This document shows positions 19,854-58,654 of a DNA stretch of 64,000 bases, piece by piece. Every line of letters starts with the position of its first letter. Position 1 is the first letter of the stretch. The notes beneath the pieces were generated by a model, which saw nothing but the letters and a program-made list of their open reading frames with translations, did not search any database and had not been told where the DNA came from. Source of the stretch: Eledone cirrhosa (Eukaryota); assembly GCA_964016885.1 (NCBI GenBank), contig OZ024748.1, positions 51,274,001-51,338,000 of the forward strand, written 5' to 3'. Position numbers and translations under genes: made by a program.

Positions 19854-19877
19854 CACATATATATATATATATATATC

Positions 19878-32302: not shown

Positions 32303-32351
<49 letters not shown>

Positions 32352-33163: not shown

Positions 33164-33400
33164 TATTAAAATAACATTAAAGTTTAAGCAAAGAATTGCT
33201 GCTTTCACCCTTAACGGATCTTCTTTTGTTTCAGAAGATCCCGTTAAGAGTGAAAGCAGCGATTCTTTGCTTAAACTTTAATCTGTTATTTTAATAAATA
33301 TTTACTCTATGGTTTTATATATTTTTTATATATATATATTATCCTTATCAAGCCCTCTTTGGATTTTAGTCTTCACATTTATTATTATTATTATTACTAT
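33164..33400 (+). mobile_element. Penelope-like pLTR with inverted 5' duplication
   Basis: Palindrome 33164-33296, hammerhead-like fold in the right arm, tail shared with 19512-19605 and 39231-39390, (TA)n on both sides. Confidence 0.65.
33228..33276 (+). ncRNA. Type I hammerhead ribozyme-like motif (U4A core variant)
   Basis: gttt CAGAAGA tcccgttaagagt GAAA gcag cgattct ttgc TT aaac: stem I gttt/aaac, stem III agcag/ttgct. Confidence 0.55.
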
Positions 33401-33619
33401 TACTATATATATATATATATATGGATGGACATAACAATAGAAAACAAATAAAAAAATAACAAATGCCACCAAAAACAAGTACCCCAATAGGAGGAGAGTA
33501 CTTTAGGATAATCCCAGTGAGAAACCCCACATAAAACCCCAGATTACTTTGTTACTTCAGAGGATTAAAAGTGCCCTCTACTGGTTTCTTTTCTTCTACT
33601 CAGAAAATAATACAATAAT

Positions 33620-33917
33620 AATGGTTTTTGATTTAAGCACAAGGTCAACAGTTATTTTTTGGAAGGGGCAAGTTGATTATATCAACCCCAGTGCAGTACT
33701 GGTACTTTATTTTATCAATCCTGTAAAGATGAAAGGCAAAACTAACCTCGGCAGGATTTGAAATCAGAATGTAACAACAAAAATAATAACAATAATAATA
33801 ATAGATCCTACTTTAGTAAAAAAAGGCCAGCAATTTGAAGGGGGGAGGAAAGTCAATTAAATTGACCCCAGTGCGTGACTGGTGCTTTATTTTATTGACC
33901 CTGTAAGGATGAAAGGA
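33620..33917 (-). mobile_element. Two Meta/MESC-like SINE fragments
   Basis: ccccagtgcagtactggtactttattttatc...gatgaaagg cores. Confidence 0.7.
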
Positions 33918-34258
33918 AAGGAGAAGGAGAAAATTAACGGATACAAGGATTTAAAGTGGGAGTTAAAAAGAATTTGGAATTGTCATCAGATCAAGGTCAT
34001 CCTGATTATCATAGGAGCACTAGGTACTCTCTCAAAGAGTTTTCAAGGATGGTTAAAGAAGATTAGTCCAGCCCCCTTTTTTGGAACACTTCAAAAGACA
34101 TGCTTGCTGGGAACAGCAAGAACCCTTTGATATGTCCTGAATATCTGAGGCTGCAGGTGGTGGCTTGATGTTCATTTGAACAAACTTTATAGTTAAATAA
34201 CATCAATGACTGAAGCTCCAATAATAATAATAATAATAACAATAATAATAATAATAAT
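33918..34258 (+). mobile_element. Dong/R4-clade LINE 3' end (restriction-like endonuclease C-terminus) with (TAA)n tail
   Basis: KEKEKINGYKDLKWELKRIW...IIIGALG...LQKTCLLGTARTL matches the EK..KY.DL..EL.R.W...GALG...QK..LLGTAR.L signature; ends in (TAA)n. Confidence 0.85.
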
Positions 34259-34430
34259 GATTTCTAATATAGGCCCAAGGCCAGTAATTTGGGGGGGGGG
34301 GAAAGTCGATTAAATCAACTCCAGTATGTTACTGGTGCTTTATTTTATCGACCCAGTAAGGATGAAAGGCAAAGTTAACTTCAGCGGGATTTGAACTCAG
34401 ACAGTAAAAGACTGTTACTCTATGCTGACA
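34259..34430 (-). mobile_element. Meta/MESC-like SINE
   Basis: Core plus B-box gggatttgaactcag on the minus strand. Confidence 0.75.
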
Positions 34431-35077
34431 GATTACTAGTCAAAGCATAAGGGCATACATCTTGAAGGGAGTCTTGTAGTTAATTATATCAACATCAGCA
34501 TTTGTTTTATTTTTCAGTCCTAGAAGGATAAAAGACCAAAGTTGTCCATGAAAGAATTTGAACTCAAAACAAAGATCAATAACTACTGCTAGGAATTCAA
34601 TTTCATGCACTACCCCAATAAGATGATAATGAGTGATGATGATGATGATGATGATGAGCACACCTCCAATGCCAGTGGCGGTGGTGGTGATGGGGTGCCA
34701 GTTCTCACCCACCCATATCATCTCTGATCTACTTGTTGATGTACTTCTTATAATTCTTTCTTCAGATTGCATTTATATATATCTGCATCTATCTATCTAA
34801 ATATATATATATATGTATACAGGTCTCTCTCTCTCTCTATATATATATATACACATGTATATATACATATATTTGGTAAATAGTATATTTTTGTATTATT
34901 TTATTGTATTTTATTTCCATTTTAATTTAGTTCTTGGCTTCATTTTTTTTTGCTAAATTTAATTGAATTTACCATGATCTCCAGCAATATTAATTTCAAT
35001 TACATAGTGTGTAGAAAAAAGATTATAAAGAAGTGTGTGTATATATATATATATACACACACACACTTATGTATATG

Positions 35078-35108
<31 letters not shown>

Positions 35109-35589
35109 GTAAGTGTGTACGCACACATACATATATAAGTATATATACATATGTTTGTGCGTCTGTGGGTGGGGGTTTGTTTGTGTCAGATGATACACAC
35201 ATACATATGTATACTTAGATAGATATAGATATAAACCTAACAAATTCAGAGAAAAATACCATTAAAAAAATGGGAAAGTAAAAAATTAGAAAAAATAAAT
35301 GAAAATATGAAAATTCTCAGTTTTAAAACATCAAATGTGAATTTAACTTTGTCATAAAAAAGATTTAATTTGAATAATATGTACATATATATACCCACAC
35401 ATATGTGTGTATATATGTGTGTATATATGAACTGCATAGAATTGAGTTAGTACTATAAACATTGACATTATCACATACTTAAAATTATAGGTGGGATATT
35501 TTTATGTGTTTTTACATACATGCATGTATGTCCATAGTAGATTCCTTATTAATTATACACATTTATGTGCATGCATAAGCATGTGTGTT

Positions 35590-35640
<51 letters not shown>

Positions 35641-36159
35641 AGTTTTTTTTTTGTTTAGTATGATACCATTGGGAAACATTTAAAGAGACACATATTTTAC
35701 ATGAAGATTTGTGGGTGATAGATAGCTGTGTAATGGAATCATATATTATATACAAATATATGTAGGTGTAAAATGATATTTGTCTGTTTTATAAATATTC
35801 ATATGTGTATATGTATTTCTGTGTGTGCAAATATAGTGGAATCTTTCGATGAGAATCACATGTGCGTCATTCTTTCATTTTTTAATGGTGTTTCAGTCAT
35901 TACATGTGGGCCATTCTGGGCCATAAACACAGACTTGAGGCTTTGGGGATAATAATTGCCAACACACAGTAATCAAATAGATATGTTTGTTAGCTCTAGA
36001 AAAATAATAATGATAATACGAAAAAAATATATATGCAAGAAAAAATTTTTTTATTTGTGTCCTTCCATCTTCCATGAAAACATATGTCCATTATTGCTAT
36101 TTTATATGGTTAATCAATCAATCATGTTCCTGCAGCCAGTTATTAAGATGCCACTCTAG

Positions 36160-36525
36160 ATTCTTTCATAGTCAACCATTGCTATTGGTCTTTATTCTCC
36201 ATCATCCATAGAAGGGTCTTGATGTTGTGGTCAGTCCAGCCTATGATGTTGTCACATCAGAATTTTCTTTGCCTGTCCTTTGCCCTCCCTTGACTATTTC
36301 TTGAAGAATGGTTTCAGACAAGGAATTGTGGTGGGATACATGACCATACCAGGCAAGCTTGTATCTTTTCACCATTATAGGAATAGTTCAGTTCTGTCAG
36401 TATATTTACTAATTTGCTGCCTAACAAACTTATTTGTTTTGTGCTCCTTGTATGGGATGTTTTGCAGCCTTCTGAGACATTTGTTCTTGAATGCTTGGAT
36501 CCTTTGCTTCATGTCAGCTCCATCG
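36160..36525 (-). mobile_element. RTE-clade LINE C-terminal fragment (different subfamily)
   Basis: Minus strand gives KLAWYGHVSHHNSLSETILQ, then a frameshifted G.RQRKF...NIIGWT-like motif. Confidence 0.7.
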
Positions 36526-36886
36526 TACATAGGTCATAAAAACAATACATGGGATAGATTATATGTGTCAATGAAACCCCCTAGCAGAATTGAAAGCAAA
36601 ACATCATTACTGGAAAGTGAACTCCTTAAATGATTGGCCAAGTATGTGCCAATTATACATGAATATATCATCATCAACATCATCATCATGATTTTATACT
36701 TGCTTTACATGCTGGCATGAGTTGGGTGGATTGTCATGGTTAGAGACCAGAAAGGTTGGAGTGACCTCATCTTGCTTATACATTTCATATTTGGTATTGT
36801 TTCTATGGATGGATAGCCTTCCTAACAGCAACCACAGTACAGAGTGTACTGAGGGCACCTGATATAGCATAATTATTTCCACTTTA

Positions 36887-37282
36887 GGGCGGTGGATTGA
36901 CAGTATCGGTAAGGGTCTGACACCATGCTTTGCAACAAAGAGTTATGGCCCTTTATGGTCTGAGTTCAAATCCCGCCAAGGTTAACTTTGCCTTTCATCC
37001 TTACGAGGTCGATAAAATAAAGCACCAGTAATACACTGGGATAATTGCTGGCCTTGTGCCAATAGTAGAAACAATTATTACCACTTTAGGGTGGAGGATT
37101 GGCAGTATCGGTAGAGGGTCAGATACCCTGCTTTGTAGTATAGAGTTACGCCACTTTACAATCTGAGTTCAAATCCCACCGAGGTTAACTTTGCCTTTCA
37201 TCCTTGCGGGGTTGATAAAATAAAGTACCAGTAATGCATGCGGGTAATTGCTGGCCTTGTGTCAAAAATAGAAACAATTATT
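36887..37282 (+). mobile_element. Head-to-tail dimer of Meta/MESC-like SINEs
   Basis: Two full units (gggcggtggattg...agaaacaattatt) bounded by three copies of aattatt(a/t)ccacttta. Confidence 0.85.
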
Positions 37283-38338
37283 ACCACTTTACAGAGTGGA
37301 CTGGATGCATTATATCAGAGCACTGATACTATCACTCCAGAGATTGTACTGAGTACATGTTAGAGTGGTAACAACATTACAGAGGTTGTCATATGCTCAA
37401 TCTTATTGAAGGGGCCCTTTCAGTGCCATCCCCTGTCTCTCATCAGGTATTTGCGACAGTGCCTCTACTGGTGGATGGGTCTTTTGTATTATGGCATATC
37501 ACCAGTCAGATTAGTCCTGTGTCATCATATTTATGAAGTTCAGTTTCTTTACATCAATCATCATAATTCTGTTTTTTGACTTCCACTTGTTCCATCAACT
37601 TTATGTATTTAACATTTGTTTATGTCTTTCTTGCTCTCCATACATATCACATGATAATATGAGCATAAGTGTTTTTATTGTACTCTACATTCAATTTCTC
37701 TCAAAATCTGCTTCTCTCTTAGTTCACTTCTGCTCATGTGTTTTCATCCAAGCATCCTAGCATATTTACACACACACAGGTCTATTTTCAAAGATGTTAT
37801 GCTAAAATTCACCATGTACATCAAATGTATGGATGTAAATGGGGATCACTTGGAACATATAATGTAACACTGGACAGAAAGAGCGGAAGATGGCGAATTT
37901 TTGATATGTTATTGTTAATGGTTTGAAATAAATATACTCAAGGTTTCATCAGCTTTTGTCAGCAAATAAATTCTGTATAAAAAAATGAAGATGTAGCAAT
38001 TTGCTCTTTCTCTCTCTCCATCTCTTTCTCTATATATGTATGTGTGGGTGGGTGTAAAAGGTAAACAGGAATAACAAAAGAAATGACACAGTACGTAGTA
38101 GGAATATATATTAGTTTAATGCTTGAAATGGCAGGAAGAGGGTCTTAACATTTCGGATGATAGAATGAGAAATTAAAGAAGAAACAGAAAGATTGAAGAG
38201 ATGGGCAGGGTAGAATTGGAAAAAGAAAAAAACATTTTTTAGAGAAATATAACAGGTCCAATCATATTGTCTTCTCTTCATATATATATATATAATAGAA
38301 AAAACAAGGAAGTTTCATTTAAATATGGTAAATATTTA

Positions 38339-38447
38339 TTGCATATCGACCTGCTACATGTGTTTCGCAGAGGAATGGCTCAAAGCGACACATAGGGGTT
38401 ATGGACCTGACTCCAGTATAAATCTGCTTCTCGGACAGGTGATGCAA
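38339..38447 (-). ncRNA. Hammerhead-like fold with long stem II insert, non-canonical core
   Basis: Minus strand: ttgcat c acctgt CCGAGAA gcaga [~50 nt] tctgc GAAAC acat GTA gcaggt cgat atgcaa. Confidence 0.45.
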
Positions 38448-38469
38448 CAAAATATATACATATATACAC

Positions 38470-38500
<31 letters not shown>

Positions 38501-38579
38501 CACCCTTGCAAGCAGGGAAAAACGGACGTAAAATGATTTTATTTTTGTTTTTATATATATGACGGCAATGAATTTGTTT

Positions 38580-39060
38580 TGTTTTGCAAGGATTTTTATA
38601 TGAAATCGTATGTCAAAACAAATAATGTTATACTTGGGGAGGCTCATATTGTTGTAATAATTGTTTCTACTTTAGGCACAAGGCCAGCAATTATCCCAGT
38701 GCATTACTGGTACTTTATTTTATCGACCCCGTAAGGATGAAAGGCAAAGTTAACGTCGGCGGGATTTGAACTCAGATCATAAAGGGAGGTAACTCTATGC
38801 TTCAAAGCATGGCGCCCGACCCACTACCAATACTGCCAATCCACCGCCCTAATAATATTGCCAGAAATAATAACAGAACACACTCACTGTTTGGTGTATC
38901 TTTTACATCTCCATAGTTAATTTATTTGGCAATCATTGATTGAACAACGGTTAAAAATACAAATATAAATATATTTATATAATCTATCAAAGTTCTTTTG
39001 TTGCACATCTGCAACATCATCAGTGGTACTATTATGTTCCCTCCTATTGTATTGTATTGT
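38580..39060 (-). mobile_element. Penelope-like pLTR (family of 41640-42630) interrupted by a SINE
   Basis: Aligns to 42315-42630; CTGATGA at 39017-39023 (-) with stem II gttgca/tgcaac. Confidence 0.75.
38662..38849 (-). mobile_element. Meta/MESC-like tRNA SINE, full length, 7-bp TSD
   Basis: TSD taataat at 38655-38661 and 38850-38856; empty site visible in the paralog at ~41670. Confidence 0.9.
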
Positions 39061-39230
39061 AACGTGAAGAACTGAAAGTTCAGTGTGCGAAGAAAGAATG
39101 AACGTGAAGTCGAAGAGTGAGATTCAGGGGCGGTAATAGGTTAATGCTAGAAAATTCATATAATGGTCAGAGTGAAAGGGTTGCACAACATATATATACA
39201 CACACACACATCTATCTATCTATCTATCTA

Positions 39231-39390
39231 TAGTAATAATAATAAAATTGAAGACTAAAATCCAAAGAGGGCTCGATAAGGAAAATATATATCAAATATA
39301 TAAGAACCGTAGAGCAAATATTTATTAAAATAACAGATTAAAGTTTAAGCAACGATTCTTTGCTTAAACTTTAATCTGCTATTTTAATAA
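39231..39390 (-). mobile_element. Penelope-like pLTR fragment with 31-bp-arm palindrome
   Basis: Arms 39322-39352 / 39360-39390; loop cgattct is the stem III loop of the 33228 motif. Confidence 0.65.
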
Positions 39391-39464
39391 ATATATATAT
39401 ATATATGTTTTATATGTCTCTTGTGTTGAAAAGGAGGTCAAGTATGTTATAGATCACTAAATAG

Positions 39465-39513
39465 TTGCTCCGAAGAATCCAAACCTCGGTTTGGAGGAAA
39501 CAATTGTAAGCAA
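39465..39513 (+). ncRNA. Minimal type I hammerhead ribozyme motif (U4C variant)
   Basis: ttgct CCGAAGA a tccaaac ctcg gtttgga g GAAAC aatt GTA agcaa: 5-bp stem I, 7-bp stem II, palindromic ACAATTGT stem III. Confidence 0.7.
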
Positions 39514-39707
39514 AAAAATGATTTAAACTGAACTTTGATTATTGTAATCTCTATATATTTTATATGTCTCTTTGATTATTGTAATCTCTCTCTCTCTATA
39601 TATATATATATTCATATATACATACATACTGTAAAATCATTGCTGTGATTCAATTTGAGAACAAAACGTGAATTTTCCACATAGGATTGATGGAGTAATT
39701 TTATAAT

Positions 39708-39872
39708 AAGGAATACATAGTTTAGAAGATAAAGTCCTTTATTGATAAGACTGTGATACATATTTCGATGATGACATTGGCTACACGATTTGGCGTGGCC
39801 AGTGTCATCATTGAAATATGTATCACAGTCTTATCAATAAAATACTTTATCACCTAAACTTTGTATTTCCTT
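39708..39872. repeat. ~77-bp-arm imperfect palindrome
   Basis: aaggaatacatagtttag...gacattggctac / gtggccagtgtc...ctaaactttgtatttcctt; single-arm homolog at ~5292-5380. Confidence 0.85.
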
Positions 39873-40003
39873 GTTTTACATACATATATGTATATAAATA
39901 AAATACTGAGTTACTAACTCATATGATACCCTGCAATATATGTATATACGTATATATATATATAGATACCCCGTACCATCAATCTATCTTATTTCTCATT
40001 CTT

Positions 40004-40039
40004 TCTTCTGATGATGGACTAGCGTCCAAAACGTTAAGA
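40004..40039 (+). ncRNA. Minimal hammerhead motif, G12A-mutated copy
   Basis: tctt CTGATGA tggac tagc gtcc aAAAC GTT aaga; the paralog at ~38130-38172 (-) retains tccGAAAtgttaaga. Confidence 0.6.
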
Positions 40040-40436
40040 CCCTCTTCCTGCTATTTCAAGTGTTAACCTAATATATTCTTTCCATATACTGAACCGATTC
40101 TGTTGTTATTTCTGTTTACCTTTTACATATATATATATATATATATATACATATATGTATGTATATATACCATTATAAGGGACCAAGACAAATGGAGAGA
40201 AGCCGTGCTTAATGAGAGCCGTCCCACCCTTGCAAGCAAGGAAATGCAGATGTAAGATGATGATGATGAAGATGATATATATTATGTATATATCTATATA
40301 TATTATATGTATATAAATATATATTATATATATCTATATATATTATATGTATATAAATATATATTATATGAATATAATTAGATATTATATATATATAAAT
40401 ACATATTATATGTATATAGATAGATATTATATATAT

Positions 40437-40775
40437 CATCATCATCATTTAATTTTACGTCCGCTTTTTCCCTGCTTGCAAGAGTGGGACGGGAACTGAT
40501 TCTGGCTTGATTTCAACAGCTGGATGCCCTTCCTAACACCAACCTCATTTACAGTGAGTGCTGGGTGCTATTTTGCTGTGGCACCTCCACGACCACTTTG
40601 CAGTGGAATGATATGGACCCCTGTCCCTATCATCTCATTTCTACAGCTGAGTAAACTAGAGCAATGTGAAATAAAGTGTCTTGCTCAAGGACACAACACA
40701 TCACCCGGTCTGAGAATTGAACTCACAACCTTTCAATTGCAAGACCAATGCTCTAACCACTAAGCCATGTGCCTC
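40437..40775 (-). mobile_element. CORE-type tRNA SINE with RTE tail, full length
   Basis: Reverse complement of 49822-50166. Confidence 0.9.
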
Positions 40776-40919
40776 CAATATATAAATATATATTATATAT
40801 ATATCTATATATATTATATATATATGAATATATATTACATATATATCTATATATATTTCATGTATATAAATATATATTATATATCTATATGTGTTATATG
40901 TATATAAATATATATTATA

Positions 40920-41215
40920 TCATCATCATCACCGTTTTACATCCGTTCTTCCACGCTAGCATGGGTTGTCCTGCTGTGGGCAGTGTCTGGTCAGCTGACT
41001 TTGTCTTGCTCATACGGTAACTTATTCTGGCTTGATTTCTACAGCTGGATGCCCTTCCTAACATCAGCCTCCTTTACAGTGAGTGCTGGGTGCTTTTTTT
41101 CCCTGGCACCTATGCATCCACTTTACAGTGAGGGCTGGCTGCTTTTTTGCCGTGGCACCTCCACGACCACTTTGCAGTGGAATGATAGGGACCCCAGTCC
41201 TATTATCTCATTTCG
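40920..41215 (-). mobile_element. CORE SINE variant with longer RTE tail, 5'-truncated
   Basis: Tail matches LINE 3' UTR 53147-53415 and includes the palindromic linker. Confidence 0.75.
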
Positions 41216-41444
41216 ATTGCAAATATATATATATATTATATAAATATATATAATATATATATAATAATTGTTTCTACTTTTGGCACAAGGCCAGTAATTA
41301 CCCAGTACTAATAATATATGCGAGCAAGACAACAAATCTTGCCTCACGTGGGACAATTGCCATCTAAACCCATGGGAGCGTGGAAGATAGACCTTAAACG
41401 ATGATGATGATGATGATGATATATATATAGAATGTATGTATATA

Positions 41445-41499
<55 letters not shown>

Positions 41500-41882
41500 C
41501 TATATCTATATATACTATATGTATATAAATATATATTATATAAATATATATATAATATATATATAATATATATATATATATAATATATATATAATATATA
41601 TATATACATATATTTCTAATATATATATATCTAATATATAATATTGTTATACTTGGTGAGAGTCATATTGTTGTAATAATATTGCCAGAATTAATAAGAG
41701 AACACACTCACTGTTTTGTTGGTTTTCGCTTCTGTATCTTTTATATCAGTTAATTTAATTTATTCGGTCCTCAATGTTTACCATTGACTGACCAACGGTA
41801 AAAAATATAGATATAATATAGGCACAAACACATATATATATTTAGTCTAACAGAGTTCTTTCGTTGCACATCTGTAACATGG

Positions 41883-42086
41883 TCAGTACTATACGAACAT
41901 GCCAGACAACAACACGACGGTAACATAGACAACATAGAAATAATATCTAAACCTAGAAATGACCCAGCAGACAGGCACATCAGAGAGGCCAGTGAAATAG
42001 AACTTAGAAGGCCAAAGCTAAACAAAAAAAATGAATGGAATAACAACAACACCCAAACAAACAATACTGATCTAAAAGAAATATAA
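41883..42086 (+). pseudogene. GIY-YIG endonuclease C-terminal remnant (Penelope-like)
   Basis: Manual translation SVLYEHARQQHDGNIDNIEIISKPRNDPADRHIREASEIELRRPKLNKKNEW...stop; S.L.EH...H and R.I.EA..I....P.LN motifs; no start codon, so absent from the ORF track. Confidence 0.75.
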
Positions 42087-42338
42087 ATAAAATAATTAAA
42101 TAAATAAATACACAGACAAGCGCAATAACAACAAACACATATAAACACACACTAGTAAACTAAGATAAAATACAATAACCAAAGCACAGTCAGCCAAACA
42201 CGAACACACATCAAACACTATACACACACGCAAACGCAAAGAAGAAGACAGAAATAAATAAATAATTAAATAAATAAATAGATTAAACAGATTAAATAAA
42301 GATGCCGTAGACATACAATACAACAGGAGGAAACATAA

Positions 42339-42390
42339 TAGCACCAATGACGATGTTGCAGATGTGCAACGAAAGAATTCTGTTAGGCTA
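42339..42390 (+). ncRNA. Hammerhead motif in pLTR (C3A in this copy)
   Basis: tagcacca ATGACGA t gttgca gatg tgcaac GAAA gaattc tgttaggcta; paralogs give CTGATGA (39017-39023 -) and CTGACCA (41879-41885 region, -). Confidence 0.55.
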
Positions 42391-42966
42391 TATATATGTG
42401 TTTGTGTCTATATTATATCTGTATTTTTGACCGTTGGTCAGTCAATGGTGAACATTGAGGACCGAATAAATTAAATTAACTGATATAAAAGATACAGAAG
42501 GGAAAACCAACCAAACAGTGAGTGTGTTCTCTTATTAATTCTGGCAATATTATTACAACAATATGACCCTCCCCAAGTATAACAATATTTGTTTCGACAC
42601 ACGATTTCATATCAAAAACCTCGCAAAACTAATATTTATAGAATATAAATATATATATAATTATAATATATTTATAGAATATATATAATATATACATATA
42701 CTTACATATATATATATGTATGTATATATATATAATATATATATATATATATAAATATACATACATATACATATATGTATATATATGTATATATATATAC
42801 ATACATAAATATATATAAAACATATATATATATATATATGTATATATATACATACATATATATATATAAAACATATATATATATATATTTTATATATGTG
42901 TATATATATATATATGTTTATCTATATATATATATGTTTATATATATATATATATATGTTTATATA

Positions 42967-43000
<34 letters not shown>

Positions 43001-43164
43001 CATATATAATATATATTTATTCACATATAATATATACAGATATATATATAATATATGTATATATACATATATTATATATAACTCTTTTACTCTTCTACCT
43101 GTTCCAGACATCCGGCTGAGGCCATGCTGGGGCACCGCCATTTATAACATATATTCATATACAG

Positions 43165-43223
<59 letters not shown>

Positions 43224-43539
43224 AATATATATATATATGTATTTAAATAATATATATAATATATATTTATATACATATATTATATATAGATATATATATA
43301 ATATATATTTGTATAGATATAATAAATATAAATATATATAGAATATATATCTATATAGATATATATAGAATATATATATTTTTTCATTTACCATTAGAAG
43401 GAGTCCGACGAGCCGCAGATTACAGAGTCAGGTCAGATCGATACAGATCGAACCTTGAACTGATCAGTGGCAAATCGCGCGTTACCAACCAATAAACAAA
43501 ATGAAGGAGTAACCAATCATCCTTGTTATTTTATTTCAC

Positions 43540-43614
43540 TATATATATATATATATATTGTATATATATATATATATATATAATAAATGTATATATTTTA
43601 TATATATATATATA

Positions 43615-43678
<64 letters not shown>

Positions 43679-43705
43679 AATGTATATATTTTATATATAT
43701 ATATA

Positions 43706-43761
<56 letters not shown>

Positions 43762-43767
43762 AATGTA

Positions 43768-43860
<93 letters not shown>

Positions 43861-43990
43861 ATAAATGTATATATTTTATATATATATATTATAAATGTAT
43901 ATATTTTATATATATATATATATATATTTTATATATATATATATATATATAATAAATGTATATATTTTATATATATATATTATAAATGTA

Positions 43991-44024
<34 letters not shown>

Positions 44025-44042
44025 TTTATATATATATATATA

Positions 44043-44092
<50 letters not shown>

Positions 44093-44145
44093 TACATTTA
44101 TAATATATATATATAAAATATATACATTTATTATATATATATATA

Positions 44146-44192
<47 letters not shown>
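43540..44192. repeat. (TA)n satellite with ataaatgtatatatttt units and an internal strand inversion
   Basis: Units flip to aaaatatatacatttat after ~44084. Confidence 0.85.
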
Positions 44193-44194
<2 letters not shown>

Positions 44195-44283
44195 TATACA
44201 AATCCACCCACACAAATGCATGCCCACGATCACATAGCAGATAAAAATTGTAAAATATAGGTAAAAAATAATTTAACTGAAAC

Positions 44284-44329
<46 letters not shown>

Positions 44330-44925
44330 TGTAGACGTGTGGGTGTGTATTTGGTTGTGTACATGTGTGTGTGTGTGTTTTCATGCCTGTGTAATTTACT
44401 GTATATGTAAATAATTAGATAGAGGTGGAAAGATTATTCAGAATATATCCTCAAAGAAGTCATGTACTGAACACACACATAGATGCAGTATATATATCTG
44501 TTACTGAAGTAGATACATAGGCTGAAAAATATCTATTTTTTTCTTCTCCAACAAATTCCTTTATGTATATAGGTTTTTATAAGTTACTTCCCTTACTATC
44601 TATGTTTCCAGTAGAAATTGCTGGCTGTCGGATATTTTTTTGCAGTGAGAAGAAACAGAATTGCATAGTAGAAATAGCAGAGAGAAACCTGCTTTCCCTG
44701 AATATTCAGCTGATATTTGTATATGCGTTTATATCTATATACACACACGCACACACACACACACGCACACATATATATGTGTATGTGTGTGTATGTATGT
44801 ATATAAATATATGTGTGTGTGTGTGTGAGTGTATGTATGTATATATATATATATATATATCTATATGCATATACATCTATATGTGTATGTATATATATAT
44901 CTATATGCATATATATCTATATGTG

Positions 44926-44961
<36 letters not shown>

Positions 44962-45086
44962 CATATATATATAAATATTTATGAATATATGTGTGTGTGT
45001 GTTTGTGTGTTACACTGTATAAGTATATATAATGTATATATTCCATATGTTGCTCATAAAATATATCGTTATTAGATATATATTTA

Positions 45087-45270
45087 ATAATTGTTTCTAC
45101 TTTAGGCACAAGGCCAGCAATTACCGAGTGCATTACTGGTTCTTTATTTTATCGACCCCATAAGGATGAAAGGCAAAGTCAACCTCGGCGGGATTTGAAC
45201 TCCGATCGTAAATAGCGTAACTATGCTGGAAAGCATGGTGTCCGACCCTCTACTGATACTGCTAATCCAT
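45087..45270 (-). mobile_element. Meta/MESC-like SINE
   Basis: Near-full-length match to 54001-54189. Confidence 0.85.
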
Positions 45271-45309
45271 GGAAAATGTAATATATATTTCTATAAAGTA
45301 CACACACAC

Positions 45310-45351
<42 letters not shown>

Positions 45352-45362
45352 GTGTGTGAGTG

Positions 45363-45393
<31 letters not shown>

Positions 45394-45395
45394 TA

Positions 45396-45433
45396 CGAGC
45401 TGAGGATCCACTAAGGTGAAACAATTGTTCTCG
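45396..45433 (+). ncRNA. Minimal type I hammerhead ribozyme motif, canonical core
   Basis: cgag CTGAGGA tcc actaa ggt GAAAC aatt GTT ctcg; lies at the start of a ~140-bp unique island in (TA)n. Confidence 0.75.
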
Positions 45434-45560
45434 GTATGGTGAACTAACTGTTGTGTAACCACTTCTACCAAACTCGTCCCATGGACTGAGTGCTCTACCA
45501 CTACGGATATTACCTTCCAGTGTTCTACCACTATATATATATAATTATAGTGGAATAATC

Positions 45561-45608
<48 letters not shown>

Positions 45609-46223
45609 CTGTGACTGAACAATGCCGTTGATTAAGGAATATGCAATTTGAAATATGTATATCCCAATATATGTAAGAATTGAGGAAACTAAGTATGTAA
45701 GCCTGGAAAGTAACAATATGTATAGGGGCATATCTGTTCCCCTTTTTTTCTGTCTAAAGTTGTATTTTACACAATTTTCTGAACTATTATTTATAGTTAT
45801 TGACTATTAGTATATTCGTTTGATTTGCGACAGACATTTCAAATTCACACACACGCAGCCCAGGTATCTCAATTTTCTTATCCACACAAAATTGTCTTCC
45901 TCACTGATTAACGAATGTGTGAACTCTAATCTGTTCGGATTGAGTTTTTATAAGAAAGACTTCATTACATTATTAAGTGAGGAAATGACCAAAGCTGTGT
46001 CCATTCTATTTGATAAGCTTTGTCTTTTAATATATATATATATGGATATATTCTCATAAATGCATATGCATTATACATGTGCAAGATTTATAAATTAAGC
46101 ATTATTTAGTTATATATATTTTACATGCTTTAAATATACAAATGCACACATATTTTGTACATTGAATATCTGTGTATTGCTTTTCATCCTTTTTTTGTCA
46201 ATAATGTACCAGTCTAATATTGG

Positions 46224-46282
<59 letters not shown>

Positions 46283-47758
46283 ATCTGGTAAAATTTAGCT
46301 GTGTTCAGATCTCAAGAGGAATGACCTCTGATATGTTTCAATGCCCAAGAAATGCTGTATATAATATGATGACCTATGACTCAATCAGTAGTTCTTGGTG
46401 ATTGCATGGCAATGTAAGTTATTGTTAAGTTAGTTTTGATCTCTCAATATTTGTTTACAAGTAGAAATGTAAGTAGAAATTTATTCATTTGAAGAGTACC
46501 CCCTATGCATGATAAAGAGTTGATAGGACTGCTCAAGATACAAACCCACATCTCATTACTAATTCCATGGTGTCATGACCCAGTTGAAATATGTCATTAT
46601 TCCTTTTGATACCAAACATTGTTAGTTTTAAAGAGTTTATTTTCATTTCAAGACCTAACATCTTAACTGAGGGTGATTTCTGGTAGTTTGGTATCAAAAG
46701 GGTTAGAAATGATAAACTATGTTTTCTCATTTCACTCACAAGGCATGAGCCAACCACAGGCTTTGTTAAGTGTCATTTGCCCTTGATGTTAGAAAGAGTT
46801 GAAACCCAGTACCTATTGATTACAAAACAAACCTCTTTAACATTTGCCCATGCTGTGTCCAAATACAAATCCAGGGTCTTCTCACTCTAGTTGGAGGAAC
46901 CCTTCCCTCGTTGATCTGCACCTGTTTCTGTTTGCTTTTGGACATGTCATTGGGGATGTAGCCATAGTCATCATGCTTGGCCAATTGTAGGTTGGTGAGG
47001 CTATTTAACCCATAGTCGGGGCAGATGACCATTGGTTCTGGGGAGTTCAGCTGCCAATTTGTCAACTGCTCTTATTTTTTGTGCTTCTGGGGTTCTGCCT
47101 ACTTTCATCACTAGACCAGGATCTGGTGGACGAGCCGGTTTACTCACTGACCACTTGACCATGAAGCTGATTGTACTGGGTTACATGGTGCCAATAGCAA
47201 GCATAAGCCTGATCTGTGTCCAGCAGGCTAAATAACAACTAAAGTAAATACATACTTAGATACTCCAGTCCTTTTGTTGCCTCATACATTAGAGATAAAA
47301 CATATTTTTATATAATTAATCCACCTTAGTGACTTCATTAACAACAATGGAGGTCTAAGTTGACATCAGATTTTGACTCGTGACAGCACAAGAACGAAAT
47401 GTTTGTCAATCTTTACAAATGTGCAAAATTATATTTTATTCTGTTCACATCTAAATGTGCATCTGTGCAATTATGCACACATGCTGTGTGGCAAAAAAAA
47501 AAAAATCAAAATGTATGCATTTCCTCATTTATGCAAGTTTATGTATGTGTGTGTGTGTGTGGAAGGGGAGTGATGGAGCTGATCAGTGTTGCGTGTTTAT
47601 ATTTATATATATACTATATATACGTGTGTATGTATGAAAATGGAAAAGTCAACTCAGGTCAGTGAGGTCAATACTAGAGTCTGTGTGAGTGCATAAATCA
47701 TTAAATTATATATATATATATATAAACATACATATATATATAAATATATAAACATACT

Positions 47759-47802
<44 letters not shown>

Positions 47803-48169
47803 CATATATATATACATATATATATATACACACACACACACGCACACACATATATATATATAGAGAGAGAGATAGATATATATGCATATATATATAAAGA
47901 TATATATGAGTACCTGTGCATATGTTTGTGTGTATATGTGTTTCTGTGTGTGTGTGTGTGTATGTATGCGTGAGTATTTATATCATTGTCTGTGCCTTTA
48001 TGTTAGTGTATGTGTTAATGTCTGTATGTATAGAGCAAACTTCTCTATATATACACACTGGTGTGTATGTGTGTGTATGTATATATGTATGTGTACTTAT
48101 ACATAGGCATTTGCAAATGTAATGATATTGAAAAAAAAATGTGTGCCCTCTTTATAATAACTAGTTATT

Positions 48170-48204
<35 letters not shown>

Positions 48205-48699
48205 GTATATGTGTGAGTGTGTGTGTGTGCATATGTAAATATATAGTTTTGTGTAGATGTGTGTGTGCATACTTACATGAGATTACACATATATATATAA
48301 ACAGAGTGTGAATCTGAGCGTGTGTATCAATGTCTGTATGTATGTGAATGAGCTTGTTGTTAGGGCTTGTGTGAACTTTGCCAACGTATGTTAGGTAAAT
48401 GACTCACTATATGTGTGTGTTTATGTGTATGCATGTGTGAGTGTGTGGGTGTATATATGCATGTATTTATATATAATTATGTAAACATACAACAGAGTGT
48501 ATGTGTATAATCAGAAACGTGTGTGTGTTTGATGTGTAAGGTGTATACTAACACATGGTTAGGTGAGTGTATGCGTATATATATATGTAAATATATAAGT
48601 TTGCATGTATGTAAACATATAATTATTTATACAAGTATGCATGTATGTATAGAAGTATGTATGCATGCATATATATATGAATACCTAATGTGATCATAT

Positions 48700-49036
48700 A
48701 TCATCATCATCATCATTTTACGTCCACTTCTCCCTGCTTGCAAGGGTGGGATGGGAACTGATTCTGGCTTGATTTCTACAGCTGGATGCCCTTCCTAACA
48801 CCAACCTCATTTACAGTGAGTGCTGGGTGCTTTTTTGCCGTGGCACCTTCACAACCACTTTGCAGTTGAATGATAGGGACCCCAGTCCCTATCATCTCAT
48901 TCAACAGCTGAGTAAACTGGAGCAATGTGAAATAAAGTGTCTTGCTCAAGGAAACAACACATCACCCGGTCTGAGAATTGAACTCACAACCTTTCTATTG
49001 CAAGGCCAATGCTCTAACCACTAAGCCATGTGCATC
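48700..49036 (-). mobile_element. CORE-type tRNA SINE with RTE tail
   Basis: Reverse complement of 49822-50166. Confidence 0.9.
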
Positions 49037-49579
49037 CATATATGTGTGTGTATGTATGTGCATACATATATATGTATGTATGAACATATGTATATAGATA
49101 TGCATGAATGTATATAAATATGCATGAATGTATATAAATATGCATGTCAGTATATATGCATATATGTATGACTGCATGTATATAAATATATGTGTTTAAT
49201 GTAATAAAGATGATTTGTGTAAATGTTTGAGTGTGCTTACTTGTGTGTGTGTCTATATGTGCATGCTTGTGTATGAGAGAATGTGTGTATGTATGTGTGT
49301 GTGTGTAGGTGTGCTTCTGTGTGAATATGTTTGTAAATGTGACTGTCTTCATGTTTTTCAGTATGTAAGTGTGCTTACATATCTGTACTTAAAAAAATAG
49401 CTATGTTCATTGTGTCTGTGTGTTTGTGTCTATAATAATTTTGTTTGCATGTGTATAGGTATGTGCCTGCTTATAATTATGTAAGTATATGTGTTACTAT
49501 ATGTTTGTGTGTGTGTCTGTATAGATACATGACCATTTATATACATGCATGGATATATGTACATATATATATATATATG

Positions 49580-49765
49580 TTTATCCTGGGTTCAATCGGG
49601 GGTAACCACATAAGTAAGGTACTCAATACATAGAGTATAAATATTTTACATAGAAATGGCTTCTACAGGACTAGAGCTGTTTCATTTGGGAGAAATCATC
49701 AGCACTTCCTGATGATTTCTCCCAAATGAAACAGTTCTAGACCTGTAGAAGCCAGTTCTATATTA
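49580..49765. mobile_element. Penelope-like pLTR fold-back (52-bp arms) in (TA)n
   Basis: Arms 49651-49702 / 49709-49760, loop cacttc; relatives at 19650-19745, 32229-32310, 58228-58305 plus 58567-58610. Confidence 0.75.
49705..49751 (+). ncRNA. Type I hammerhead ribozyme motif, canonical core
   Basis: cttc CTGATGA tttctcccaaat GAAAC ag ttctagac ct GTA gaag: stem I cttc/gaag, stem III acag/ctgt, GUA site, weak stem II. Confidence 0.75.
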
Positions 49766-49774
49766 TATATATAC

Positions 49775-49817
<43 letters not shown>

Positions 49818-49821
49818 TATA

Positions 49822-50166
49822 TGGAGGCACATGGCTTAGTGGTTAGAGCATTAGTCTTGCAGTCGAAAGGTTGTGAGTTCAATTCTCAGACCGGGTGATG
49901 TGTTGTTTCCTTGAGCAAGACACTTTATTTCACATTGCTCCAGTTTACTCAGCGGGAGAAATGAGATGATAGGGACTGGGGTCCCTATCATTCCACTGCA
50001 AAGTGGTCATGGAGGTGCCACGGAAAAAAAGCACCCAGCACTCACTGTAAATGAGGTTGGTGTTAGGAAGGGCATCCAGCTGTAGAGATCAAGCCAGAAT
50101 CAATTCCCATCACGCCCTTGTAAGCAGGGAGAAGCAGACGTAAAATGATGATGATGATGATGATGA
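49822..50166 (+). mobile_element. CORE-type tRNA SINE with RTE tail, full length
   Basis: ggaggcacatggcttagtgg (A box), gagttcaattc (B box), ccttgagcaagacacttt (CORE-like), RTE tail, (GAT)n. Confidence 0.9.
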
Positions 50167-50296
50167 TATAGTCATAAATGTATGTATATGTGATGTGAAT
50201 AATTATGAGTGTTCATAATTGTTTTTATATGCATGAATATAAACACACACACATATATATATATATGCATTGTGTATGTGTGTGTGTATATATATA

Positions 50297-50447
50297 TAGG
50301 AAAAGACTCAGGAACCCGATGGCTGAGCTCCGGCTATTTCAACACCTAGATCCAAACTCTTTCCTATTACCCACTCTACTACCCTAAGTATGGTGTACTC
50401 TGGCGCGTTATGCTCCATCCAGTATGTTACCACACCCTCTTTGTTAT
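50297..50447. mobile_element. Penelope-like pLTR fragment (family of 52134-52327)
   Basis: Shares ctattacccactctactaccctaagtat; minus strand GAAAtagccggagctcagccaTCgggtt. Confidence 0.55.
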
Positions 50448-50689
50448 ATATATATATATATATGTGTAGTGAAGGGTGGAAAGGGTTCTTAAATCTGGTA
50501 AGACAACCTCTGGTGGCACGAACAATGCACCCAGTCCACACTGTAAAGGGGTTGGTGATAGGAAGGGCATCCAACCAGTAAATCCAAGGCAAAATTATGA
50601 AAAGCACAACCAAAGAAAATATAAAAACAATGATACATATATATATATATATATATATATGTATACAAATATGTGTACTTTTATATATA

Positions 50690-51635
50690 TATTATGGTAT
50701 ATATATATATATGGTATATATATATATATGGTATATATATATATATGGTATATATATATATGCTTTATATATATGCTTTATATATATGCTTTATATATAT
50801 GCTATATATATATGCTATATATATATGCTATATATATATGCTATATATATATGCTATATATATATGCTATATATATATGCTATATATATATACTATATAT
50901 ATATGCTATATATATATGCTATATATATATACTATATATATATACTATATATATATACTATATATATATACTATATATATATACTATATATATATACTAT
51001 ATATATATACTATATATATATACTATATATATATACTATATATATATACTATATATATATACTATATATATATGCTATATATATATATATTCTATTCTAG
51101 GGTGGGTAAAATTCCCGAGATCCATGGACGAGTTCTCTCCAGTGGTCTCTGTCCCTCATTATTGCTGCCATGTCCTGCGTCTCCAACAGACCAGTGTCTG
51201 TCCTTAGGGCATCAACATATGTTAACCTTGGTCTTCCTCTGAGGATGAAAAACTCAGTGCTGTATGGGAGCCTCCCAAAAGTCAGCTCAAAAGTGACACA
51301 GAGAAGACTGAGGTTAGCTGGACATATATATATATATATATATATAGCATATATATATGTTATATACATATGCTATATATATATGCTATATACATATGCT
51401 ATATACATATGCTATATATATATGCTATATATATATGCTATATATATATGCTATATATATATGCTATATATATATGTTATATATATATATGCTATATATA
51501 TATGCTATATATATATGCTATATATATATATGCTATATATATATGCTATATATATATGCTATATATATATGCTATTTACATATGCTACATACATATGCTA
51601 TATACATATGCTATATATATATATATACATATATA

Positions 51636-51700
<65 letters not shown>
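50690..51700. repeat. ~11-bp compound (TA)n satellite (atatatatgct / atatatatact) flanking a LINE fragment
   Basis: Visible. Confidence 0.9.
51095..51324 (-). mobile_element. RTE-like LINE 3' end with inverted 5' segment
   Basis: Minus strand RGRPRLTYVDALRTDTG...MRDRDHWR; plus strand NSVLYGSLPKVSSKVTQRRLRLAGH. Confidence 0.8.
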
Positions 51701-51706
<6 letters not shown>

Positions 51707-52043
51707 ACATGTGCATATACAAGGGTAAATACAAACCACAGTTTAAATGACTGTATGTAGTGACTGTGGTATATTTATCTGTGTTTGTGTGTTTGAACAA
51801 ATCACATGTGAATCAGTGCAAGTAATGTTCATTGCTCAGTCTCTCTCCAGAATGTGTGTTTGTGTGTCTGTGCCAGCGAAATTTTGATATATTTCAGAGT
51901 GCTATCACAAGCTTATGTTTATATACATACACACATATAAGGATATATGTGTTTGCATGAGTATGTGTTTTGAACACACGCACATAGACATATGTATGTG
52001 TAAATATATATACACATATTTACAGATTGTATACTTATATATA

Positions 52044-52082
<39 letters not shown>

Positions 52083-52133
52083 TAACATACAAACAGACAC
52101 ATACATATTTAAATATATATATATATATATACA

Positions 52134-52327
52134 TAGGAAAAAGTATAACCCCGACGGCAGAGCTCAAGCCATTTCAACGGCTATTTCTGGTCCAGAAATA
52201 GCCGTCAAAATGGCTTGATCTCTGCGTCAGGGTCATACTTTTTACTATTACCCACTCTACTACCCTAAGTATTGAGTTCTCTAGTGCGTTATGGTCCATC
52301 TGGTTCCTTACCACAACCTCTTCGTTA
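52134..52327. mobile_element. Penelope-like pLTR fold-back (~57-bp arms) with hammerhead 3' half
   Basis: Arms 52134-52190 / 52192-52247; minus strand GAAA tggc ttgagctct gccg TC ggggtt. Confidence 0.6.
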
Positions 52328-52354
52328 TATATATATACATACAGATATATAGAT

Positions 52355-53417
52355 ATAAACTGCCCCAAATGCAAACAATGGGTACACAAGAGATGTAGCG
52401 GGATCTCAGGAAGCTTAATTAAGAATGTAGGATTCACATGCAGCAGCTGTGCTGAAACAGCAAGCAAACAGTCACAGGAAACAAGTACCACCAATCTCTG
52501 GGAGGGCCCTGTAGAAACAGTAGACAGCTTCTGCTACCTAGGTGACCGAATTAGCAACGGAGGTGGGTGCTCAGAAAGTACAATAACTAGGGTAAGAACG
52601 GGATGGAAGAAGTTTAGGGAACTACTACCACTGCTAGCTGCAAAAGGCTTCTCCCTCAGAATGAAAGGCAGACTGTATGATGCGTGTATCCGAACAGCGA
52701 TGTTGCATGGTAGTGAGACCTGGGCGCTGAAGGTGGAAGACTTACGTAGATTAGAGAGAAACGAAGCCTGCATGCTCCGATGGATGTGTAACAGTAATAT
52801 ACGTGAACGACAAAGCATAAAGGAATTGAGAGAGAGACTGAGCATAAGAGGAATCAAATGCTGCGTGCAGGAGAGGCGGTTACGCTGGTATGGACATGTG
52901 ATGCGTATGAAGGATGACAGCTGCATAAAAAGGTGCAGAGCACTAGAAGTTGATGGAAACCGCGGAGTGGGGAGACCCAAGATGACTTGGGATGAGGTGT
53001 TAAAAGCCGACCTTACCCAACTACACCTCTCAAAGTCAATGACACACGACCGTGACTTCTGGCGTCACGCAGTAATACAGGGTACCCGACCTCCCATGGG
53101 TACATGCTGAAGCATATAAACAATATGCCCCCCCCCCCCCCCACCGCAAGGTGGTCGTGGAGGTGCCACGGCAAAAAAGCACCCAGCCCACACTGTAAAG
53201 TGGACGTGTAGGCGCCACGAAAAAGCACCCAGCACTCACTGTAAATGAGGTTGGTGTTAGGAAGGGCATCCAGCTGTAGAAATCAAGCCAAAATCAGTTC
53301 CTGTATGAGCAAGGCATGGTCAGCCGACCAGACACTGCCCACAACAGGACAACCCGTCTAACCCATGCTAGCGTGGAAGAACGGACGTAAAACGGTGATG
53401 ATGATGATGATGATGAT
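52355..53417 (+). mobile_element. RTE-clade LINE, young 5'-truncated copy
   Basis: Stop-free frame 52355-53110 (CPKCKQWVHKRC...VDSFCYLGD...RRLRWYGHVMR...GRPKMTW), 3' UTR, (GAT)n tail. Confidence 0.95.
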
Positions 53418-53519
53418 GTTGAAACATATATATGCACACATATATAAACATATATATATATACACATATATAAACATATATATATAGACATATATATAAA
53501 CATATATATACATATAAAT

Positions 53520-53556
<37 letters not shown>

Positions 53557-53563
53557 CATATAA

Positions 53564-53602
<39 letters not shown>

Positions 53603-53603
53603 C

Positions 53604-53856
53604 TGATGTGTTGTTTCCTTGAGCAAGACACTTTATTTCACATTGCTCCAGTTTACTCAGCTGTAGAAATGAGATGATAGGGACTGGGGTCCCTATCATT
53701 CCACTGCAAAGTGGTCGTGGAGGTGCCACGGCAAAAAAGCACCCAGCACTCACTGTAAATGAGGTTGGTGTTAGGAAGGGCATCCAGCTGTAGAAATCAA
53801 GCCAGAATCAGTTCCCGTCCCACCCTTGCAAGCAGGGTAAAAGCGGACGTAAAATG
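53604..53856 (+). mobile_element. CORE-type SINE with RTE tail, 5'-truncated
   Basis: Begins at tgatgtgttgtttccttgagcaagacac. Confidence 0.88.
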
Positions 53857-54000
53857 AATACAAATGAATACATACTTATAGATACATAAATACATATATG
53901 AGCAAGATACTGTTGTGTGATGTGCCTCTCTAGCCTTGTACTGCCCATCTAACACATGCAAGCACGGGAAATATACAGTAAACAGTGGAGATGATAATAA

Positions 54001-54189
54001 CTGTTTCTACGTTTGGCACAAGGCCAGCATTTACCCAGTGCATTACTGGTACTTTATTTTATCGGCCCCGTAAGGATGAAAGGCAAAGTTAACCTCGACG
54101 GGAATTGAACTCAAAATGGCAAGGGCCGTAACTCTATGCGTCAAAGCATGGCGTCCGACCCTCTACCAATACTGCCAATCCACCGCCTT
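54001..54189 (-). mobile_element. Meta/MESC-like tRNA SINE with 16-bp TSD
   Basis: TSD gtggagatgataataa at 53985-54000 and 54190-54205; central tttgcctttcatccttacgggg.cgataaaataaagtaccag resembles the Meta/MESC domain. Confidence 0.9.
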
Positions 54190-54302
54190 GTGGAGATGAT
54201 AATAATATCTACACAAATATACACATATATACATTAATCTACATGTATTATAATGAAACGATAGGTTCCTGGATTTGTGTAATTCCTTGAAAGGATTATT
54301 AT

Positions 54303-54360
54303 GCTATGAGCATTTCAATGACCGGGTTCCGTATGAATCCGGTGATATCATCAGGTATTC
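54303..54360 (-). ncRNA. Hammerhead-like motif with long stem II and poor stem I
   Basis: Minus strand: gaatac CTGATGA tatc accggattc atacg gaacccggt catt GAAA tgc TC atagc. Confidence 0.5.
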
Positions 54361-54432
54361 AAAATATAATACGTGAATGTAATAGATAAAATCCATGGGG
54401 CTGAAAATCGAGGACCCGAGGGCAACCGCTAT

Positions 54433-58307: not shown

Positions 58308-58569
58308 GGGTGATGTGTTGTTTCCTTGAGCAAGACACTTTATTTCACATTGCTCCTGTTTACTCAGCTGTAGAAATGAGATGATAGGGACTGGGGTCCC
58401 TATCATTCCACTGCAAAGTGGTCGTGGAGGCGCCACAGAAAAAAAGAACCCAGCACTCACTGTAAATGAGGTTGGTGTTAGGAAGGGCATCCAGCTGTAG
58501 AAGTCAAGCCAGAATCAGTTCCCATCCCACCCTTGCAAGCAGGGAAAAGCAGACATAAAAATGATGATG
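58308..58569 (+). mobile_element. CORE-type SINE with RTE tail, 5'-truncated, nested in a pLTR fold-back
   Basis: Flanks 58228-58305 and 58567-58610 match the two arms of 49580-49765. Confidence 0.85.
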
Positions 58570-58654
58570 AAACAGTTCTAATCATGTAGAAGCCATTTCT
58601 ATATTAAATTTCTGATATATATATATATATATTTACATACACATATATATATAT

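Follow-up and report, generated by a model that had tools for sequence, protein, structure and literature searches.

Islands in (TA)n microsatellites of Eledone cirrhosa as probable truncated 3' ends of Penelope-like elements with a type I hammerhead motif

The stretch analysed here (the window) comprises 64,000 nucleotides of Eledone cirrhosa DNA (assembly GCA_964016885.1, contig OZ024748.1, positions 51,274,001 to 51,338,000 of the forward strand), taken from a genome of 3.0 Gb; it is AT-rich and holds many microsatellites, short interspersed nuclear elements (SINEs) and fragments of long interspersed nuclear elements (LINEs). An initial annotation, made from the sequence alone, had described short islands between TA tracts in its middle part as roughly ten families of diverse minimal hammerhead ribozymes. 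Each of the ten islands belongs to a multi-copy family of interspersed repeats (A to J) and has the layout of a type I hammerhead. In our judgement they are very probably the 5'-truncated 3' ends of about ten families of Penelope-like elements (PLEs), at least four of them of the Hydra clade, which carry the hammerhead motif in a pseudo-long terminal repeat (pLTR) and enter (TA)n, likely through a cut by their endonuclease followed by priming at UA. This reading builds on direct observations: the families are multi-copy, five of them are linked to open reading frames (ORFs), copies are arranged in tandem or inverted, the 3' ends are discrete and meet (TA)n in a short stretch of shared sequence, and the ribozyme cores are conserved.

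Multi-copy families and the scale of the system

At the level of families the proposal of ten hammerhead families holds, since each of the 11 coordinates named is a hammerhead-derived motif of a multi-copy family, above chance. At the level of copies it does not: most window copies are decayed, only that at 45400 is letter-perfect and that at 52150 is half a motif. Judged by their sequence, the window copies do not support a population of working ribozymes, because most of them are decayed, and most solo copies are likely inert.

The argument that the motifs are not due to chance is borne out. A descriptor of type I hammerheads with palindromic stem III matches the window perfectly at 45400 and with a single core mismatch at 39470 and 40008, so that three matches with at most one core mismatch lie in 33164-54360; in 200 local dinucleotide shuffles the means were 0 for perfect matches and 0.04 for one mismatch, and none of the 200 reached the observed counts. 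A relaxed descriptor additionally picked 49709. Genome searches gave 974-3,400 first-look candidates per family for A, B, C, D, E, G and H, and exact patterns matched 2,926 times for I, 17,938 for J, 5,000 for B and 4,164 for F, with no match to the reversed patterns used as controls. Both conserved boxes (CUGANGA and GAAA) are intact in most copies of five families, namely A (37/40), H (31/41), G (19/21; these three counts take in one or two non-family matches), D (14/18) and E (8/10 copies shown), and in 13 of 28 copies of C. The tallied copies were picked by likeness to the window copy, whose own mutations are thereby overrepresented; 13 family C copies share its G12A at a CpG. That the motifs are merely chance matches in AT-rich, repeat-rich DNA would fit the failure of most window copies to pass the strict descriptor and the absence of Rfam matches, but the shuffles, the empty reversed patterns (0 against 2,926 to 17,938 exact matches) and the intact cores in most tallied copies already refute it, and we give it practically no credence.

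The scale of the system was estimated from an unbiased sample of 60 evenly placed 10-kb stretches (600 kb), which holds 34 motifs against a shuffle total of about 0.75. By core, 22 are canonical, nine have A at position 4 (A4), one has C (C4) and two have a U3-A8 pair, the respective shuffle means being 0.15, 0.05, 0 and 0.55; two control cores gave 0. The resulting density of about 57 motifs per Mb corresponds to roughly 1.2-2.4 x 10^5 per genome, a simple extrapolation that, as copies cluster, is good to an order of magnitude only. In a biased set of 1.77 Mb of fetched sequence, 350 motifs fell into 51 clusters, 24 of which have at least two copies (17 canonical, five U3-A8, one U4A and one U4C); one of the five U3-A8 clusters proved to be a tandem-repeat false positive.

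Standard annotation misses these motifs. Rfam gave no match in the window at the gathering score, and at E<=10 only microRNA-like noise appears among the 150 matches listed of 504, even the perfect copy at 45400 having no hammerhead match at that threshold. On the genome, RF00163 gave 18 matches, all of one family that is absent from the window islands. Because Rfam misses such motifs, ribozyme counts in genomes of this kind are likely far too low. The expectation that repeat masking would hide the islands as simple repeat was not confirmed, as arrays called by Tandem Repeats Finder cover none of the 11 cores, one of them stopping 7 nt short of the core at 45400. The 18 Rfam Hammerhead_1 matches (loci L001-L018) form one further TA-inserting family, with a Hydra-type endonuclease upstream in one copy.

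Link to Penelope-like proteins

In five families an endonuclease is encoded upstream of the hammerhead at a fixed distance, in agreement with the large and diverse Penelope system that had been proposed. The distance is about 300 nt in H (29/36 copies), about 950 nt in J (20/80), 1106-1189 nt in I (8/34), 1421-2016 nt in B (7/60) and 170-281 nt in A (7/42), a few chance neighbours being contained in these counts. Family I has an intact ORF of 784 residues in a 3,542-bp tandem array, family B one of 832 residues in tandem units of about 4.2 kb, and family J open stretches of 627-645 residues in a 3.26-kb tandem unit. In tandem copies the hammerhead lies 156-260 nt ahead of the likely start codon of the next unit, and the islands therefore correspond to pLTRs.

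The structure model of the family I protein has a predicted local distance difference test score of 89.7, its top three Foldseek matches in the PDB are telomerase reverse transcriptases (RTs), and its C-terminal part has a feature match of 0.95-0.96 to GIY-YIG clusters of the atlas. In all, 649 homologues were found, and the protein is 43% identical to that of B and 53% identical to that of J. In the endonuclease, the Y..YxG motif, R, E and N are invariant in eight of eight sequences. The motifs of the Hydra clade are present (RWR in place of RWK, DKT, CxCX5C, and CxxC and CxH around E and N, without CCHH), the comparison for family A covering the thumb and endonuclease part. By these motifs, at least four families, A, B, I and J, appear to belong to the Hydra clade of PLEs with a C-terminal endonuclease (C-terminal EN+). 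Family H is a canonical PLE, because relatives of the endonuclease encoded at 41883-42040 extend to the RT thumb, a CX4CX2C linker and the YIG motif; its ORF has a weak RVT_1 match. Compared by motifs rather than by a tree, H shows CX4CX2C, DKS and C..C/H..H, against CX2-5CxxC, DKG-like and CCHH of the Neptune/Nematis type. A profile comparison of the Hydra-type with the canonical endonucleases was not significant. The ORFs of H and B contain asparagine-rich inserts (L279, L359-L362) that resemble the inserts of rotifer PLEs (PMC3846280). In single copies, a canonical-type endonuclease lies upstream of C, D and F and a Hydra-type one upstream of E and G. One candidate, the endonuclease upstream of G in L283, was rejected as belonging to family I.

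(TA)n insertion and discrete 3' ends

The proposed targeting of TA is supported. Among 304 copy ends of families I, J, B and D, part of which are mismatch stops rather than true ends, 236 lie no more than 25 nt from (TA)4, a proximity shown by 1,111 of 16,200 sampled positions (6.9%); family A is also inserted in TA. The copies stop at fixed points on the 3' side and raggedly on the 5' side, as expected of truncated insertions, with two or three discrete 3' ends in I, J and B and two in H. Of the 156 ends that join TA directly, 145 share at least 2 nt with it, and 141 are concentrated at eight sites, of which I and B have two each, J three and D one. At every one of these major sites the element has 2-6 nt in common with the TA run, as compared with 15-34% of control junctions; if the sites are independent, the chance of this is about 1e-5. 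The sequence shared at the major ends suggests priming by microhomology, in which the nicked TA strand would prime reverse transcription by short pairing. No report of such priming by Penelope at microsatellites was found in the literature searched, and PMC3846280, in the portion available, mentions microhomology for a 5' junction and for deletions only.

A mechanism can be proposed in which the endonuclease of the element would nick (TA)n, after which the cut strand would anneal to a UA-like stretch of 2-6 nt and serve as the primer of reverse transcription; such stretches would lie at one to three internal sites, fixed in position and downstream of the ribozyme. An inverted, truncated partner is present in many copies, among them five of the window insertions, and such short fold-back copies could arise from early truncation and strand switching. 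The ribozyme would cleave tandem transcripts, probably as dimers and perhaps assisted by protein.

Several observations weigh against this interpretation. The ORF link of C, D, E, F and G comes from one copy each, with coverage gaps, and the ribozymes of D and E (L273, L276) are alike, yet the types of endonuclease in their single copies differ; because of these single-copy links and the D/E mismatch, some of the five families may be non-autonomous or mislinked. Searches of the Hydra-type ORFs against Pfam and PDB sequences gave no matches. The microhomology comes from eight sites, two of which, in J, are 5 nt apart, and if ends seen in a single copy are counted, only 40-57% of the distinct end sites of I, J and B share 2 nt or more. 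The sole PLE studied in vitro starts reverse transcription at sites that are not homologous to the cut DNA (PMC11167929). On the supporting side, covariation, which had been suggested as a check on the stems, is seen in family F, where three stem I pairs are altered on both sides and none of 500 shuffles reaches the score; the count ignores relatedness among copies, which inflates it, and a control slid by +2 scored about the same (0.107 against 0.109). The D/E mismatch itself may reflect either a mislink or a swap of pLTR modules.

The single-copy links also bear on the idea, raised initially, that the islands are retrozyme-like, that is, non-autonomous units spreading via self-cleaved circular RNAs with the PLE enzyme acting in trans. 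In families C to G, 0.45-1.4 kb of shared upstream sequence is non-coding and no ORF is confirmed in two independent copies, and a true 253-bp tandem hammerhead array, with a stem II resembling that of family F, exists elsewhere in the genome (L275). No island of the window, however, is a short tandem unit with a hammerhead; five families are linked to ORFs, and single copies link the other five; and the 3' ends are fixed while the 5' ends are ragged. We therefore regard the retrozyme explanation as highly improbable and the islands as truncated ends of protein-coding elements rather than short non-coding tandem units, tentatively so for C to G. The retrozyme-like array at L275 (C1, about 201.57 Mb) is made of units of about 253 bp, each with an intact canonical hammerhead of F-like stem II, which suggests descent from a PLE pLTR.

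Hammerhead architecture and fixed changes at position 4

Stem III is palindromic in families A, B, C, D, E and G and is 16-19 nt long and able to form a hairpin in F, I and J, while domain II reaches 50-60 nt in D, E and I. The designation of the ribozymes as minimal is thus apt for A, B, C and G but not for D and E, with their long domain II, or for F, I and J, with their hairpin-capable stem III. Fold prediction gives a three-way junction for the complete family I motif, whose core has the U3-A8 pair, a known variant, and a dimer duplex is predicted to be more stable than the fold-back of stem III in F, I and J. Two U3-A8 copies in the family F cluster turned out to be fold-back artefacts, and no covariation of the core within families is claimed. 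Many family I copies, including both of those in the window, break at the 5' side inside the long domain II, a structure that may stall reverse transcription.

Two families have a fixed change in the CUGA turn. Among the 100 first-listed matches, position 4 is A in all 100 of family J and C in 99 of family B, the patterns used having fixed flanks that a diverged U4 subfamily could escape. No J-like stem III with U4 was seen among the loci examined, and contigs of four sequencing runs over the J motif show no other letter at position 4 at 2%, which is not independent support. Most J copies of the sample have 89-100% identity to a tandem copy, and the family was therefore amplified with the A4 core. 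In J, A4 pairs with the base before G12, and the competing fold is predicted to exceed the hammerhead in stability by 3.3 kcal/mol. A mutational scan found low activity for single changes in the CUGA turn (PMC9901934), and U4C lowers activity in vitro, although a viroid with U4C keeps enough activity in vivo (PMC3088659). The ribozymes of J (U4A) and B (U4C) are thus likely weakened, as far as can be told from sequence and predicted folds. Since both families are nevertheless widely amplified, cleavage is probably not strictly needed for insertion; the simplest reading is that J and B insert without need of their weakened ribozyme, in line with the result on the anole element, whose insertion in vitro does not require cleavage (PMC11167929), and with the hammerhead-free Naiads. 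In the literature searched, the viroid U4C is the only hammerhead with U4A or U4C, and the work of Lunse et al. on PLE hammerhead variants may already describe changes at position 4. In other families, A or G stands at position 4 in single copies (L241:880, L168, L036), a hint of repeated change.

Alternatively, U4A and U4C could be active, tolerated variants rescued by tertiary contacts or by the protein of the element. The only fixed uncompensated core changes in the 24 multi-copy clusters are both at position 4, the remaining core positions and all three stems are retained, and the A or G in single copies of other families points the same way, as do the in vivo activity of the viroid U4C (PMC3088659) and a PLE hammerhead that requires protein for cleavage (PMC11167929). 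Against it, single changes in the turn gave low activity (PMC9901934), the competing fold of J is the more stable by 3.3 kcal/mol, the same picture would result if a master copy had recently changed, and two cases at one of nine positions are weak evidence. On balance we hold rescue to be a possibility worth keeping, though a somewhat unlikely one. A still broader proposal, in which Hydra-clade PLEs find their targets by telomerase-like base-pairing of nicked (TA)n with a UA motif of 2-6 nt at fixed internal RNA sites, and in which the genome has about 10^5 hammerheads, including a U4A core that is fixed in over 18,000 copies of a recently amplified family and would still cleave with the aid of the protein of the element, seems to us unlikely as a whole.

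Comparison with known systems

The arrangement of PLE, hammerhead and TA is already known, and the headline of the initial annotation is for this reason no discovery. The supplement of Craig et al. 2021 (PMC8557442) lists Hydra PLEs that bear hammerheads and insert in TA, Hydra-1_Obim of Octopus bimaculoides among them, and a diversity of minimal hammerheads has been described in PLE fragments, both solo and on opposite strands (PMC4209133). With the Hydra clade of the former account the Eledone families share the RWK-like, DKT, CxCX5C, CxxC and CxH motifs, the lack of CCHH, insertion in (TA)n, a hammerhead near the 3' end, partial tandems, inverted truncated copies and a tail. They differ in number, one octopus Hydra family within a small set outside cnidarians being given there, against four or more families here whose copies run from thousands into tens of thousands, in unit length (3.3-4.2 kb with long 3' untranslated regions (UTRs), against mostly <3 kb) and in core, the Hydra hammerheads of File S2 all having CUGA, whereas U4A, U4C and U3-A8 occur here.

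PLE hammerheads described earlier agree with ours in being of type I with a short stem I, an extra base after A9, a palindromic stem III and the U3-A8 covariant, and in comprising many sequence-distinct families of mostly solo truncated copies and opposite-strand pairs. Their counts, obtained with another descriptor, are 2,000-9,000, against the estimated 10^5 or so here, and no animal PLE hammerheads with position-4 variants or a stem III of 16-19 nt were found in the portion available of the earlier account. As in the anole Poseidon element PAc (Frangieh et al. 2024, PMC11167929), in which two internal RT start sites past the hammerhead yield a tail and targets are AT-rich, 3' ends are discrete; in contrast to PAc, whose start sites lack homology to the cut DNA, the major ends have 2-6 nt in common with the flanking (TA)n. 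Animal non-LTR retrozymes (PMC7229834; bioRxiv 10.64898/2026.07.22.740005), which reach up to 120,000 copies in the 28-Gb axolotl genome, likewise combine type I hammerheads, kinship to PLEs and very high copy number, but they are short non-coding tandem repeats, whereas the window islands are ends of ORF-bearing elements. No paper on PLE ribozymes of cephalopods was found in the literature searched; a repeat annotation of Octopus vulgaris gives 30 recently active Penelope families, and the words hammerhead and ribozyme are absent from its main text (PMC13282606).

Three points were not found in the literature searched and seem to us worth testing: the scale of the system, the fixation of changed bases at core position 4 and the microhomology with TA where the 3' ends lie. 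The Eledone families offer a natural experiment on the role of hammerheads for PLEs, as sister families with canonical, U3-A8, U4C and U4A cores can be compared directly, two of them having intact ORFs in tandem arrays. The TA shared at 3' ends provides a testable account of microsatellite targeting, unlike that of the sole element studied in vitro.

Features of the window

Table 1. Penelope-derived insertions and hammerhead motifs, by position in the window
Feature	Position	Strand	Remarks
Family J (Hydra-clade PLE) fold-back 3' end and tail	33164..33405	+	Inverted arm 33164-33224 (-) cut inside first box
Family J hammerhead	33232-33272	+	A at position 4 as in whole family; stem II mismatch; hairpin-capable stem III
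Family D 3' end	38295..38445	-	ORF link in one copy only
Family D hammerhead, decayed	38355-38434	-	Two core changes; long domain II; stem III palindromic in family
Family H 3' end with SINE interruption	38579..39060	-	5' limit approximate
Family H hammerhead	38990-39023	-	G12A
Second family J fold-back remnant	39235..39395	.	Cut inside stem III
Family B (Hydra-clade) 3' end	39405..39557	+	Multi-copy family
Family B hammerhead	39470-39508	+	Equals family, C at position 4 family-wide; 8-nt palindrome
Family C 3' end	39966..40126	+	ORF link in one copy only
Family C minimal hammerhead	40008-40035	+	G12A at CpG
Family H insertion	41640..42631	+	Inverted arm 41640-41885 (-); 3' UTR; first end 42584; tail to 42631
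Family H GIY-YIG endonuclease, last codons	about 41883-42040	+	Translated end of endonuclease
Family H hammerhead	42345-42380 (cited also as 42347)	+	C3A in window copy
Family E 3' end	43378..43541	+	ORF link in one copy only
Family E hammerhead, decayed	43405-43483	+	Three core changes; long domain II
Family A (Hydra-clade) 3' end	45393..45533	+	Flanked by two TA tracts
Family A minimal hammerhead	45400-45429	+	Letter-perfect
Family F fold-back	49579..49760	.	Hairpin-capable stem III; ORF link in one copy only
Family F hammerheads	49664-49702 (-), 49709-49747 (+)		49709: both boxes intact, one stem II pair lost
Family I-related fold-back 3' end	50298..50447	+	3' half of hammerhead only
Family I (Hydra-clade) fold-back 3' end	52135..52328	+	Cut inside domain II
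Family I hammerhead half	52201-52228	+	GAAA half only; complete family copies carry U3-A8 core
Family G 3' end	54245..54410	-	ORF link in one copy only
Family G hammerhead	54305-54354	-	Boxes intact; palindrome and stem I damaged

Beyond the islands and range initially described, further fragments of families J, F and C lie at 12541-12586, 19558-19748, 23785-23915, 32256-32344, 38054-38163 and 58559-58655. Another fold-back element in TA, at 39640-39880 and 5293-5364, matches hammerhead-bearing sequence of another locus and is probably an eleventh family. A long near-perfect inverted repeat adjoins TA at 58660-58860, with no hammerhead seen in it, and may be similar to miniature inverted-repeat transposable elements or a fold-back end. 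SINE copies are numerous across the window, some of them within PLE ends (38655-38850), and fragments of RTE-like LINE reverse transcriptases occupy 19797-21064 and 52330-53110. A frame of 106 residues at 63255-63575 (-) is not simple repeat and is possibly part of an exon.

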